Assembly: GCF_054482525.1 (NCBI RefSeq)
Contig: NZ_CM137006.1
Length of the DNA: 64,000 nt
Direction: 5' to 3' (one strand)
In this document: positions 2,100 through 58,528 of the stretch, piece by piece
How positions within the stretch are numbered: position 1 is the stretch's first letter
How the letters are laid out: each line of letters begins with the position of its first letter
Position numbers and translations under genes: made by a program
The notes under the pieces: model-generated
Database searches by the model: none
The model's input: the letters and a program-made list of their open reading frames with translations, nothing else
What the model was told of the DNA's origin: nothing

Positions 2100-2192
2100 T
2101 AAAACAGTGAATGATAACCTCGTTGCTCTTAAGCTCTGGCACAGTTGTTGCTGCCACTGAAGCGCCAGAAGATATCGATTGAGAGGATTTGA

Positions 2193-3047
2193 ATGACTGA
2201 CAAAATGCAAAGTTTAGCTTTAGCCCCTGTTGGCAACCTGGATTCCTACATCCGGGCAGCTAACGCGTGGCCGATGTTGTCGGCTGACGAGGAGCGGGCG
2301 CTGGCTGAAAAGCTGCATTACCATGGCGATCTGGAAGCAGCTAAAACGCTGATCCTGTCTCACCTGCGGTTTGTTGTTCATATTGCTCGTAATTATGCGG
2401 GCTATGGCCTGCCACAGGCGGATTTGATTCAGGAAGGTAACATCGGCCTGATGAAAGCAGTGCGCCGTTTTAACCCGGAAGTGGGTGTGCGCCTGGTCTC
2501 CTTCGCCGTCCACTGGATCAAAGCAGAGATCCACGAATACGTTCTGCGTAACTGGCGTATCGTCAAAGTTGCGACCACCAAAGCGCAGCGCAAACTGTTC
2601 TTCAACCTGCGTAAAACCAAGCAGCGTCTGGGCTGGTTTAACCAGGATGAAGTCGAAATGGTGGCCCGTGAACTGGGCGTAACCAGCAAAGACGTACGTG
2701 AGATGGAGTCGCGTATGGCGGCACAGGACATGACCTTTGACCTGTCTTCCGACGACGATTCCGATAGCCAGCCGATGGCTCCGGTGCTCTATCTGCAGGA
2801 TAAATCATCTAACTTTGCTGACGGCATCGAAGATGATAACTGGGAAGAGCAGGCGGCAAACCGTCTGACCGACGCGATGCAAGGTCTGGACGAGCGTAGC
2901 CAGGATATCATCCGCGCGCGCTGGCTGGATGAAGACAACAAGTCCACGTTGCAGGAACTGGCTGACCGTTACGGTGTTTCCGCTGAGCGTGTGCGCCAGC
3001 TGGAAAAGAACGCGATGAAAAAACTTCGCGCTGCCATTGAAGCGTAA
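2193..3047 (+). CDS. rpoH: RNA polymerase heat-shock sigma factor sigma-32
   Basis: 284-aa [54 protein letters not shown]; canonical length. Confidence 0.97.
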
Positions 3048-3066
3048 TTTCCGCTACTCAGCAGAG

Positions 3067-3100
3067 AACCCTGGATGAGAATCCGGGGTTTTTGTTTTTT
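3067..3100 (+). terminator. rho-independent terminator after rpoH
   Basis: Stem aaccctgg / ccggggtt followed by a T-run (tttttgtttttt). Confidence 0.7.
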
Positions 3101-3318
3101 GGACCTCTGCAATAATCAGTTTCCCCCTCCGGCAAAACGCCAATCCCCACGCAGATTGTTAATAAACTGTCAAAATAGCTATTCCAATATCATAAAAATG
3201 GGGTATGTTTTAGCAGAGTATGCTGCTAAAGCACGGGTAGTCATGCATAAAACGAAATAAAGTGCTGAATCACAACACCACAACACACGTAATAACCAGA
3301 AGAATGGGGATTCTCAGG

Positions 3319-4422
3319 ATGAATATAAAGGGTAAAGCGTTACTGGCAGGATGTATCGCGCTGGCATTCAGCAATATGGCTCTGGCAGAAGATATTAAAG
3401 TCGCGGTCGTGGGCGCGATGTCTGGTCCGGTGGCCCAGTACGGTGACCAGGAGTTCACTGGCGCAGAGCAGGCAGTAGCGGATATCAATGCTAAAGGTGG
3501 TATCAAAGGCAACAAACTGCAAATCGTAAAATATGACGATGCCTGTGACCCGAAACAGGCGGTTGCGGTGGCGAACAAAGTCGTTAACGACGGCATTAAA
3601 TATGTGATTGGTCACCTCTGTTCTTCATCAACGCAGCCAGCGTCAGACATCTATGAAGATGAAGGCATTTTAATGATCACCCCAGCGGCAACCGCGCCGG
3701 AGCTGACCGCCCGTGGCTATCAGCTGATCCTGCGCACTACCGGCCTGGACTCCGACCAGGGGCCGACGGCGGCGAAATATATTCTTGAGAAAGTGAAACC
3801 GCAGCGTATTGCTATCGTCCACGACAAACAGCAGTACGGCGAAGGTCTGGCGCGTGCGGTGCAGGACGGCCTGAAGAAAGGCAATGCTAACGTGGTGTTC
3901 TTTGATGGTATCACCGCTGGGGAAAAAGATTTCTCAACGCTGGTGGCGCGTCTGAAAAAAGAGAATATCGACTTCGTTTACTACGGCGGTTATCACCCGG
4001 AAATGGGGCAGATCCTGCGTCAGGCACGCGCGGCAGGGCTGAAAACTCAGTTTATGGGGCCGGAAGGCGTAGCTAACGTCTCGCTGTCTAACATTGCGGG
4101 CGAATCAGCGGAAGGGCTGCTGGTGACCAAGCCGAAGAACTACGATCAGGTTCCGGCGAACAAACCCATTGTTGATGCGATCAAAGCGAAAAAACAGGAC
4201 CCAAGCGGCGCATTCGTTTGGACCACCTACGCCGCGCTGCAATCTTTGCAGGCGGGCCTGAATCAGTCTGACGATCCGGCAGAAATCGCCAAATACCTGA
4301 AAGCGAACTCCGTGGATACCGTGATGGGACCGCTGACCTGGGATGAGAAAGGCGATCTGAAAGGCTTTGAGTTCGGCGTATTTGACTGGCACGCCAACGG
4401 CACGGCGACCGATGCGAAGTAA
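3319..4422 (+). CDS. livJ: Leu/Ile/Val periplasmic binding protein LivJ
   Basis: Track ORF 3262..4422 trimmed to [23 protein letters not shown] signal peptide (367 aa). Confidence 0.93.
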
Positions 4423-55484: not shown

Positions 55485-56976
<1,492 letters not shown>

Positions 56977-57004
56977 GCAGCTTTTGAAATGGCGAGACAG
57001 AATT

Positions 57005-57178
57005 TTACTGACTCGCCGCAGCCAACTCTTCTTCTGACACCCCGGTAAAACGCATGATGTCCGCAAGAGGGACTCCGGATTACAGCATTCTTTTGGCGAT
57101 ATCCAGGGCTTCCAGGCGTCGACCCAATAAATAACCAATCAGGTAACTAATAAGATATTCTCTTTCTGCATCTGTCAT
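57005..57178 (-). pseudogene. duplicated Rpn C-terminal tail ORF (32 codons, in-frame TAA, then 24 more codons), own SD
   Basis: MTDAEREYLISYLIGYLLGRRLEALDIAKRML-stop-SGVPLADIMRFTGVSEEELAAASQ parallels the last 54 aa of the upstream rpnA product; AAAGGA 8 nt before its ATG; TAA at 57080-57082. Confidence 0.5.
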
Positions 57179-57195
57179 TAAAACCATCCTTTACG

Positions 57196-57360
57196 TTATT
57201 GATGATTTATTTCAGCAAGGTCTTCAACCGTCAGGCTGGTAAATCGCAGAACGTCCTCAAGAGAAACTCCGGCGTCCAGCATGGTTTTGGCAATATTTAG
57301 GGCGTTGGTACGTATACCTTTCTGAAACCCTTCCTGCCGCAATCTTTCCGCAATAGTCAT
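57196..57360 (-). CDS. candidate intragenic small protein (RpnS-like) from an internal in-frame start within rpnA
   Basis: Internal ATG at 57358-57360 preceded by a consensus AAGGAG SD (57367-57372) inside the coding sequence; would give [54 protein letters not shown] (54 aa). Confidence 0.45.
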
Positions 57361-58089
57361 TAAACTCTCCTTGTGTTTGGGTGAACGTTCGGCAACGCCG
57401 TCGATAAAATCGTTAAAACGTACCGCATCGCCGGTTTGCAAGATGTAATTAAACAGCCCTTTGATTTGTCTGTCATTAGCGTATCCACTACTTAATAAGC
57501 AGGCCATTTGCTCTACCAGCCCCATCAGATCGCGTTGACGGATATGTTTTTGAATTAACTCCAGCAGCGCCATGCGTCGGTGCTGCATGATTTCATCATC
57601 AGGCATGACGGTGACATCAATCAGCGGAAATGCAGAGGCATAAAGCTGCCTTGCCAGGTTGGGATCGGCAAAACAATCCAGCCAACACAGCGAATAGGGA
57701 TAGGGGCTTTCAATACCGTGGTAAAACAACAATGGTACCACCATCGGCAACGTTTTGTATCCGGCATCAAGGTGATTTTGCATTGCGGCAATGGCGTAAC
57801 GCATCATGCGAAATGCGATCAGTTTGTTTGAGGTGCTTTGATGTTCAATCAGACAATAGATATATCCTGGTCCTTGTTCCGTTTTCACCGACCACAGCAC
57901 GTCGGAATAGCTTTCACGCAGATCGTCATCAATAAAGCTGCTCGACTCCAGCTTGAGGGTTTTCATATCACAGAGCGCGTGAATGGGTGCCGGTAAATGA
58001 AACGCAAGAAAATCGCGTGCCGTCTCCGGTTGGCGTAAAAAGAGTTTGAACAGCGCATCGTGTGGGGTGGAACTCTGCTTTTTGCTCAT
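57196..58089 (-). CDS. rpnA: recombination-promoting nuclease RpnA (YhgA-like, PD-(D/E)xK transposase_31 family)
   Basis: 297-aa [36 protein letters not shown]; between bioH and feoC as yhgA is in K-12. Confidence 0.85.
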
Positions 58090-58238
58090 GGCGTTCCTTC
58101 ACCTGTTATTTGAATGCCGCGACTCTACGCGCCACTCCACACCTGTGCATTAGCCAGTTTTCATCCCTGCGAGACGCTTTCAGAGGAACTTACGTCGCGC
58201 TGCAAGAATTGCATTTTTATGGAAAGCCGAACGCAAAA

Positions 58239-58269
58239 AAGCCCGGATGCAAACGCATACCGGGCTTTT
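58239..58269. terminator. bidirectional rho-independent terminator between rpnA promoter side and feoC end
   Basis: aaaaaagcccgg ... ccgggcttttc stem flanked by A-run and T-run. Confidence 0.65.
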
Positions 58270-58291
58270 CAAAACAGGCGATGGAGTATGG

Positions 58292-58528
58292 TTAACGCAG
58301 CGCCCACCACTCGCGCAGACAGACTTTGCCTTCCGGGCAGCTTTTACAACTGCCAGAGAGGCAGCCGTCAGGTTCTTCCTGAATCCGCACGGCTTTGCCC
58401 ATGCTTTCCAGCTGTTGCAGCATGGCGTTAATCATTGGCTGCGGCGTGTTCAATGTCTGGCTTATCTGGGCCGCTTCCATACGGCCCCGTAACGCCAGCA
58501 AATCACGTACCTGAATAAGTGAAGCCAT
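58292..58528 (-). CDS. feoC: ferrous iron transport protein FeoC
   Basis: Track ORF trimmed to [24 protein letters not shown] (78 aa); C-terminal Cys cluster. Confidence 0.9.

Follow-up and report, generated by a model that had tools for sequence, protein, structure and literature searches.

A two-cassette allele of the Escherichia coli rpnA toxin–antitoxin locus with a probable decayed stand-alone antitoxin paralog

The window analyzed here is a 64,000-nucleotide (nt) stretch of contig NZ_CM137006.1 (NCBI RefSeq assembly GCF_054482525.1), and our subject is its rpnA gene together with a small open reading frame (ORF) that directly follows it. rpnA occupies positions 57196–58089 of the minus strand, which also carries the features described below. 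It ends in a stop codon at 57196–57198 and encodes the 297-residue full-length protein RpnA-L, a PD-(D/E)XK nuclease toxin with a C-terminal HTH_Rpn_C tail. The RpnA family, recombination-promoting nuclease A, is represented by NCBIfam equivalog NF007361 and by Pfam PF04754 (Transposase_31), and the window protein scores 675 bits over residues 1–296 against the NF007361 cut-off of 583. The neighborhood is feoB-feoC-rpnA-bioH-gntX, as read from the ORFs of the window and from the annotated K-12 and PCN033 loci, and the flanking feoC and bioH that mark the conserved chromosomal position of RpnA are present. A 471-nt probe (56950–57420) is 100% identical to E. coli strain PCN033. Over residues 1–254, window RpnA differs from K-12 RpnA only by E22D and N144K. 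It keeps D11, D63, E82, Q84, R94, and D165 (the PDDEI motif with D165), all of which matter for RpnA activity according to mutagenesis (PMC5350276).

An earlier sequence-only reading of this DNA had placed a consensus AAGGAG 6 nt before an in-frame ATG within rpnA that would yield the last 54 residues as a separate small protein. Both elements are there. The Shine-Dalgarno sequence (SD) of this internal translation initiation site (iTIS), the same as in K-12, lies at 57367–57372, 6 nt before the ATG at 57358–57360. That ATG opens rpnA-S (57196–57360), the in-frame intragenic antitoxin ORF of 54 residues (MTIAERL...INHQ), to which we refer as cassette 1. The parallel drawn there with the intragenic-antitoxin (RpnS) organization also holds, as the start matches that of K-12 RpnA-S at K240/E241/M244. 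Residue numbering at these three positions is the same in the two proteins, and window and K-12 DNA are identical over the interval that runs from the SD to the end of the 11-residue start of cassette 1. In K-12, the triple substitution K240R+E241D+M244L abolished RpnA-S (Zhong et al. 2023, PNAS 120:e2307382120, PMC10400941), and RpnA-S was likewise lost upon mutation of the ribosome-binding site and M244 (PMC10400941). By its sequence, then, 57358–57360 is the RpnA-S antitoxin start that has already been published for K-12.

Translation of K-12 RpnA-S and its neutralizing activity were shown by tagging, ribosome profiling, and SOS and nuclease assays (Zhong 2023), and RpnA-S prevents RpnA-L toxicity, SOS induction, and DNA cleavage (PMC10400941). 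Its crystal structure (PDB 7TH0) is a dimeric three-helix bundle in which helix 1 forms the dimer interface (PMC10400941). The 54-residue product of the window aligns with 7TH0 over residues 1–50 (E=4e-11) with one four-residue indel in helix 1, and four-residue variation in this helix is of the kind reported previously (Zhong 2023, PMC10400941). The parent proteins of this tail have precomputed matches to Pfam PF27070 (HTH_Rpn_C). Because the start-site sequence is identical to the experimentally proven K-12 site, we infer the same mechanism for cassette 1: RpnA-L would be a toxic nuclease, the internal AAGGAG and ATG would yield the 54-residue RpnA-S, and RpnA-S would pair through helix 1 with the identical C-terminal domain of RpnA-L and keep it inactive, a pairing that would depend on helix-1 length. 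A step variant of the window allele's own helix 1 is found in E. coli Z1323HEC0300 (L008) and on a metagenome contig (L018). In these alleles, a 12-nt deletion in the expressed tail (equivalent to ~57295–57306 of the window) leaves IRAIAK, a 293-residue RpnA, and a 50-residue RpnA-S, a difference of four residues.

The rpnA stop is followed by a 17-nt spacer (57179–57195, GTAAAGGATGGTTTTA) that includes an SD-like AAGGA (57187–57191), 8 nt before a second ATG at 57176–57178; a second SD and ATG opening a tail-like ORF after the rpnA stop had been anticipated from the letters alone. The spacer is the same in every two-cassette allele examined, including those in which the downstream gene is intact. 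The second ATG opens cassette 2 (57005–57178), filed here as the rpnA-Ss pseudogene, a 57-codon stand-alone RpnS homolog in the +2 frame relative to rpnA that is broken at codon 33 by a premature TAA (57080–57082) with T as the next base (UAAU). It reads MTDAEREYLISYLIGYLLGRRLEALDIAKRML, the TAA, SGVPLADIMRFTGVSEEELAAASQ, and a final TAA at 57005–57007. The residual ORF (57083–57178) is 32 codons long and is predicted to comprise helix 1 only. When the stop is replaced by a sense codon, an AlphaFold (AF2) model with a predicted local distance difference test score (pLDDT) of 85 places helices at residues 3–33, 38–45, and 49–55. Codon 33 falls at the end of the predicted helix 1, so that anything translated from the interrupted ORF would be helix 1 alone. 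A Foldseek search with the restored model returned a sole strong match, 7TH0 (probability 1.0, target-normalized template modeling score 0.80), and the restored sequence aligns with 7TH0 residues 11–49 at E=2e-13. A Pfam-A scan of restored rpnA-Ss gave no significant match, with a library that apparently lacks PF27070, a family seen in precomputed annotations.

Two further features of cassette 2 were read from the sequence. Three codons upstream of the second ATG lies another in-frame ATG (57185–57187, minus strand) that would give 35 residues (MVLMTDAERE...); it overlaps the SD-like AAGGA and lacks a separate SD, and the start that gene callers assign to the intact orthologs is MTDAERE. Helix 1 contains three tandem 12-nt units, YLIS/YLIG/YLLG (57122–57157), to which Tandem Repeats Finder gave no score. 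Each unit has three hydrophobic residues and one small residue, a polarity opposite to that of the described RpnS helix-1 repeats, which have one hydrophobic residue and three charged or glycine residues (Zhong 2023).

The downstream ORF had been described as paralleling the rpnA tail, and formal alignment of the two is significant. In BLASTP, 20 of 39 residues are identical and 28 of 39 are positive (E=5e-13), and the Smith-Waterman score is 96, compared with 21 ± 4 (maximum 45) in 2000 shuffles (z ~19). The tails are identical at 114 of 174 DNA positions, with a global score of 30 versus −40 ± 6 in 500 shuffles (~11.6 standard deviations above). Because the DNA likeness takes in the SD/ATG region (AAGGAGAGTTTAATGAC versus AAGGATGGTTTTAATGAC), the duplicated unit would be SD, start, and tail together, and cassette 2 would have arisen by tandem duplication of this unit. 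The description of cassette 2 as a duplicated copy of the same tail was right as to homology but not as to source; at 51% identity over 39 residues, cassette 2 does not duplicate the tail that this allele itself carries.

Intact relatives of cassette 2 exist in other lineages. A large protein collection searched with the stop-restored sequence contains intact 57-residue proteins with Pfam PF27070 (HTH_Rpn_C). On their contigs, the layout is feoC, a 297-residue rpnA with the same cassette-1 tail, the 17-nt spacer, the 57-residue gene, and bioH. These contigs come from Escherichia ruysiae (L009, L010), from cryptic-clade isolates labeled E. coli (L011, L012), and from metagenomes (L013, L017, L018). 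The sequence-only reading had suggested checking whether the TAA is a sense codon elsewhere, and it is: CAA (Gln) in E. ruysiae, the cryptic clades, and Escherichia albertii, GAA (Glu) in L013, L018, and K-12, and TAT (Tyr) in L017. An Asp codon, named as the one replaced by the stop, is what the paralogous upstream tail has at this position; the orthologs have Gln, Glu, or Tyr. The simplest history is a change of CAA to TAA by one C-to-T transition at codon 33.

The TAT-bearing metagenome scaffold (L017, ENA ERZ28626391) encodes an intact 57-residue ORF at 1501–1674 (P0003; P0004 is similar) in a background that otherwise resembles the TAA-bearing allele of E. coli GN06156. In E. albertii (L019, 2501–2737), most of rpnA is deleted and residues 42–69 are fused in frame to a cassette-2 homolog. 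Two E. albertii proteins differ in the number of copies of a nine-residue YLISYLLDR unit (three in P0012, one in P0014), which points to helix-1 repeat expansion in the stand-alone cassette too, with a period of 27 nt rather than 12 nt. A search for a full-length Rpn protein with the YLIS helix, as a source of cassette 2, found none among 48 candidates, a weak negative in that K-12 RpnA was missed as well. A contig scan with full-length RpnA returned mostly distant paralogs (Photorhabdus, Xenorhabdus, Erwinia) and one true ortholog, from Escherichia whittamii; as it did not return E. coli, E. ruysiae, or E. albertii, that scan does not polarize the ancestral state.

Within E. coli, the two-cassette allele is present in 853 of 5,426 complete genomes (~16%), which, like E. 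ruysiae, share the cassette-1 tail of the window. The TAA is found in at least 827 of the 853 (exact 28-mer spanning the TAA). With a 41-nt probe centered on codon 33, such that every megablast seed must span the codon, the CAA and TAT versions each gave 0 matches in complete E. coli genomes, and in a sensitive search mode all 853 genomes lie within two mismatches of the TAA version. All 11 two-cassette loci that were read from complete E. coli genomes have TAA. Further lesions are present. Strain SW4848 (L100) has a second nonsense change, GGA to TGA, at codon 35, two codons after the TAA (M-L-stop-S-stop-V; window equivalent 57074–57076), and four protein calls of the cassette-2 ORF (P0011, P0015, P0029, P0037) are frameshifted or rearranged. 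Polymorphisms among eight E. coli alleles comprise two nonsynonymous and two synonymous changes before the stop and four nonsynonymous (one of them nonsense) and one synonymous after it, nine variable sites in all and too few for a selection test. Annotation pipelines tend to pass over such a remnant or to label it a "transposase" pseudogene: the Prokaryotic Genome Annotation Pipeline (PGAP) has no feature there in 29 of 30 sampled records, and in JSWP006 it calls a "transposase" pseudogene with an internal stop that covers part of the remnant (locus 427–531).

In most E. coli, K-12 included, the 471-nt probe is matched in two pieces and the match is 206 nt shorter. By alignment to K-12, the segment absent from K-12-type rpnA is 57122–57327, with GGG at both ends; it consists of the rest of cassette 1, the stop, the spacer, the second SD and ATG, and codons 1–19 of cassette 2. 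K-12 RpnA ends in the 11-residue start of cassette 1 followed by EQSKALHIAKIMLESGVPLADIMRFTGLSEEELAAASQ, and K-12 DNA from ESGVPL on is nearly identical to distal cassette 2 of the window, not to cassette 1. The last 39 residues of cassette 2 are orthologous to the K-12 RpnA tail (PDB 7TH0). One metagenome contig (L013) carries a stand-alone cassette 2 that reads MTDAEREYLISYLIGYLLG and then EQSKALHIAKIMLESGV..., with the K-12-type segment EQSKALHIAKIMLE inside it. Simulated removal of 206 nt from this contig, from the GGG ending ...RQEG in cassette 1 to the GGG ending ...YLLG in cassette 2, leaves 919 nt. K-12 rpnA plus flank has exactly this length, and the two sequences differ by 19 scattered single-nucleotide polymorphisms (2%). 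Since 206 is 2 modulo 3, a deletion of this size brings cassette 2, offset by +2, exactly into frame with rpnA. At the level of sequence, the K-12 RpnA tail, the one crystallized as 7TH0, is most readily explained as a fusion that links the beginning of cassette 1 to the remainder of cassette 2, and an in-frame 206-nt deletion between the two GGG sites would have joined them.

We consider it probable, at roughly 0.78, that the locus is a two-cassette allele of the E. coli rpnA toxin–antitoxin (antiphage) system in which cassette 2 is a decayed stand-alone antitoxin paralog. The TAA at codon 33 would cut cassette 2 after helix 1 and remove the two helices that complete the fold, which suggests that cassette 2 has lost its function in E. 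coli. Even an intact cassette 2 may not be cognate to window RpnA-L, because its helix 1 is very unlike that of the resident tail.

Several points weigh against this assignment or narrow it. Translation at either start in the window allele is inferred from sequence. For 26 of the 853 genomes, the probing covered CAA and TAT and gave no individual codon call; one of the 26 was read and has TAA plus a second stop. The substitution counts around the stop are suggestive but too small for a selection test. SD, ATG, and the 32-codon ORF are intact in every TAA allele read, as expected at short divergence, although a functional peptide could also account for it. The TAT of the L017 scaffold could reflect either a reversion, hinting that cassette 2 still has some selective value, or an assembly or consensus error. 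That the 206-nt event was a deletion rather than an insertion rests on parsimony, and a fused tail of the K-12 type is present in E. whittamii too, so that both allele classes cross species boundaries.

Other arrangements of the two tails bear on a different role for cassette 2. L098 and L099 show a third arrangement, in which a 61-residue expressed tail is followed by an intact 53-residue stand-alone ORF whose SD copies the internal one perfectly. In L098, the RRLEALDIA segment is in the expressed slot, with 23 consecutive nt identical to window cassette 2, and the helix FQKGIR.NALNIAK of window slot 1 sits in the stand-alone slot 2. L018 has a further mosaic second cassette, and the module adjacent to bioH is always of the ESGVPLADIMRFTG...AAASQ type in all alleles compared. 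Side by side, these sequences show that tail modules have moved between the two slots, with no implication as to the frequency of this movement or selection for it. Separately, an IS200/IS605-like element with a TnpB-type protein interrupts rpnA after about codon 215 in both L020 (E. whittamii, ~2145–3527) and L098 (1–215). The insertion point is the same and the internal start and tails are intact in both, L020 having a fused single tail and L098 two intact cassettes.

Such movement could mean that cassette 2 is kept as a silent recombination donor, with tail modules (variants of helix 1 and of helices 2/3) exchanged between an expressed slot and a stored, often silenced one; the pairing specificity of toxin and antitoxin would then switch together under phage pressure, the K-12 tail being one outcome. 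The K-12 fusion of cassettes 1 and 2, the mosaic second cassettes of L013 and L018, the swapped modules of L098 with their 23 identical nt and perfect SD copy, and the constant type of the bioH-adjacent module all fit this proposal, and it has been speculated that RpnL itself may start such recombination (Zhong 2023). We nevertheless regard both the storage role and the joint switching of specificity as unlikely. The mosaics are rare and mostly single metagenome contigs, and occasional homologous or illegitimate recombination explains them equally well without a storage role. Neither a recombination signal nor a dedicated recombinase is evident. In addition, the only fusion at high frequency is the K-12 type, which eliminates the array instead of cycling it, and cassette 2 accumulates extra lesions, as in SW4848.

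Alternatively, the residual 32-residue (or 35-residue) helix-1 peptide might be translated and modulate RpnA-L/RpnA-S pairing or act on another Rpn paralog. What makes this worth considering is that the AAGGA at its 8-nt spacing is preserved along with the ATG and the 32 codons in all TAA alleles read, that the stop coincides with the point where predicted helix 1 ends, this being the helix through which RpnA-S dimerizes in its crystal structure (PMC10400941), and that nearly all two-cassette E. coli have the TAA allele. However, cassette 2 has a helix 1 (YLISYLIGYLLGRRLEALDIAKRML) that is very unlike that of the resident RpnA tail, and a single four-residue mismatch already abolishes pairing in RpnC (PMC10400941). 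Of the four polymorphisms that precede the stop, two (S11I and G19D) change the encoded residue, conservation is no greater than a young pseudogene would show, and translation of the 32-residue peptide is putative. A functional peptide therefore seems improbable to us.

The sequence-only reading had left a choice between decay and dependence on stop readthrough, and of these two options it is decay that the evidence favors. Decay is much better supported, because orthologs have a sense codon at the position, the TAA is near-universal in two-cassette E. coli, a second stop has been added in one strain, PGAP calls the remnant a pseudogene with an internal stop in one record, and no context terminates translation more efficiently in E. 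coli than UAAU. Readthrough or recoding of the TAA to yield a full-length 57-residue stand-alone antitoxin would be compatible with a frame that is open past the TAA to its natural stop and with 24 distal codons nearly identical to the functional K-12 tail, but recent common ancestry explains that conservation. Moreover, no recoding signal was found and Rfam has no match in the region, SW4848 would meet a second stop two codons on, and four of the five polymorphisms after the stop are nonsynonymous or nonsense. We judge readthrough very unlikely. As for the idea that the tails are alike by chance or low complexity and that the downstream ORF is meaningless intergenic sequence, only the short sequence length speaks for it, and we reject it as barely conceivable given the pairwise E value of 5e-13, the shuffle z of ~19, the intact annotated orthologs bearing PF27070, and the match to 7TH0 in both sequence and fold.

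A decayed stand-alone antitoxin paralog can be set beside the known Rpn systems. Compared with K-12 RpnA-L/RpnA-S, the window has the same gene in the same feoC-rpnA-bioH locus, with an identical internal SD and ATG at K240/E241/M244, a nuclease body that differs at 2 of 254 residues, and a tail that shares the three-helix HTH_Rpn_C fold. From residue 255 onward, window RpnA has a different module, with a 54-residue RpnA-S where K-12 with EQSKALHIAKIMLESGVPLADIMRFTGLSEEELAAASQ has 49 residues and a four-residue indel in helix 1, and the K-12-type distal tail is found in the window as a separate, interrupted downstream ORF. Stand-alone RpnS homologs, termed RpnSs, have been described that follow rpnE (ypaA) and, in a subset of strains, rpnC; the loss of RpnSs genes is noted too, either through deletion or through fusion with the N-terminal region of rpn (Zhong 2023). 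The K-12 rpnA allele resembles the latter route of loss. YpaA/RpnE-Ss is detectably expressed (Zhong 2023).

Like the RpnSs of rpnE and rpnC, cassette 2 is a small ORF directly downstream of its gene, with its own SD and ATG, homologous to the gene's tail and variable in helix 1. Unlike them, it is linked to rpnA and broken by a nonsense codon in at least 827 of 853 complete two-cassette E. coli genomes, being intact only in E. ruysiae, the cryptic clades, and a few metagenome contigs, and its helix-1 repeats are hydrophobic (YLIS/YLIG/YLLG), whereas those of the rpnE and rpnC RpnSs are mostly charged. The window copy thus has the separate downstream ORF, SD and ATG, and RpnS homology of an RpnSs, but its domain is interrupted, and for that reason we file it as a pseudogene of the RpnSs class and not as a member. 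The main text of Zhong 2023 does not mention an rpnA-linked RpnSs ("RpnASs"), which may appear in its supporting information. The internal start is already known; measured against that main text, the downstream copy is a decayed, newly recognized rpnA-linked relative of RpnSs.

Orphan C-terminal modules of Rhs and CdiA and the silent cassettes of pilE/pilS offer a broader parallel, with an expressed variable module and related, often defective modules that are stored downstream and can recombine. The variable module here differs in being the toxin's own regulatory, antitoxin-binding domain rather than a toxic tip or an antigen. There are also only two slots, and the sequences compared give no evidence of recurrent or programmed exchange.

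If this assignment is correct, a stand-alone RpnSs partner exists for rpnA as it does for rpnC and rpnE, and it would be a pseudogene in nearly all two-cassette E. coli and intact in sister species. The K-12 tail used for structure and biochemistry would then be a probable capture of the stand-alone cassette, and caution is warranted when specificity rules are generalized from K-12. Naturally occurring alleles of the locus, with their tail swaps, fusions, toxin deletions, and insertion sequence hits, also form a series that could be useful for studying RpnL/RpnS co-evolution, which was left open by Zhong et al. and the accompanying commentary.

Neither RpnA nor restored rpnA-Ss has a match in PADLOC-DB v2.0.0, a library of 2023 to which we attach little weight, and a promoter and terminator consensus scan of 56900–58300 detected neither a sigma-70-like site nor a relevant terminator, and so did not locate the reported internal promoter of K-12. 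Toxin loss may have occurred at rpnA in other strains. In E. coli AF4 (L101) and S21EC (L003), rpnA lacks approximately codons 26–172 and is frameshifted (PGAP "missing N-terminus"), a match pattern also listed for Nissle 1917 and clone D i2. The internal SD and ATG and a K-12-type RpnA-S frame are intact in both AF4 and S21EC, which makes them candidates for an orphan antitoxin left after loss of the toxin. One of the ~5,400 matches to the rpnA tail probe lies on a plasmid rather than on the chromosome.

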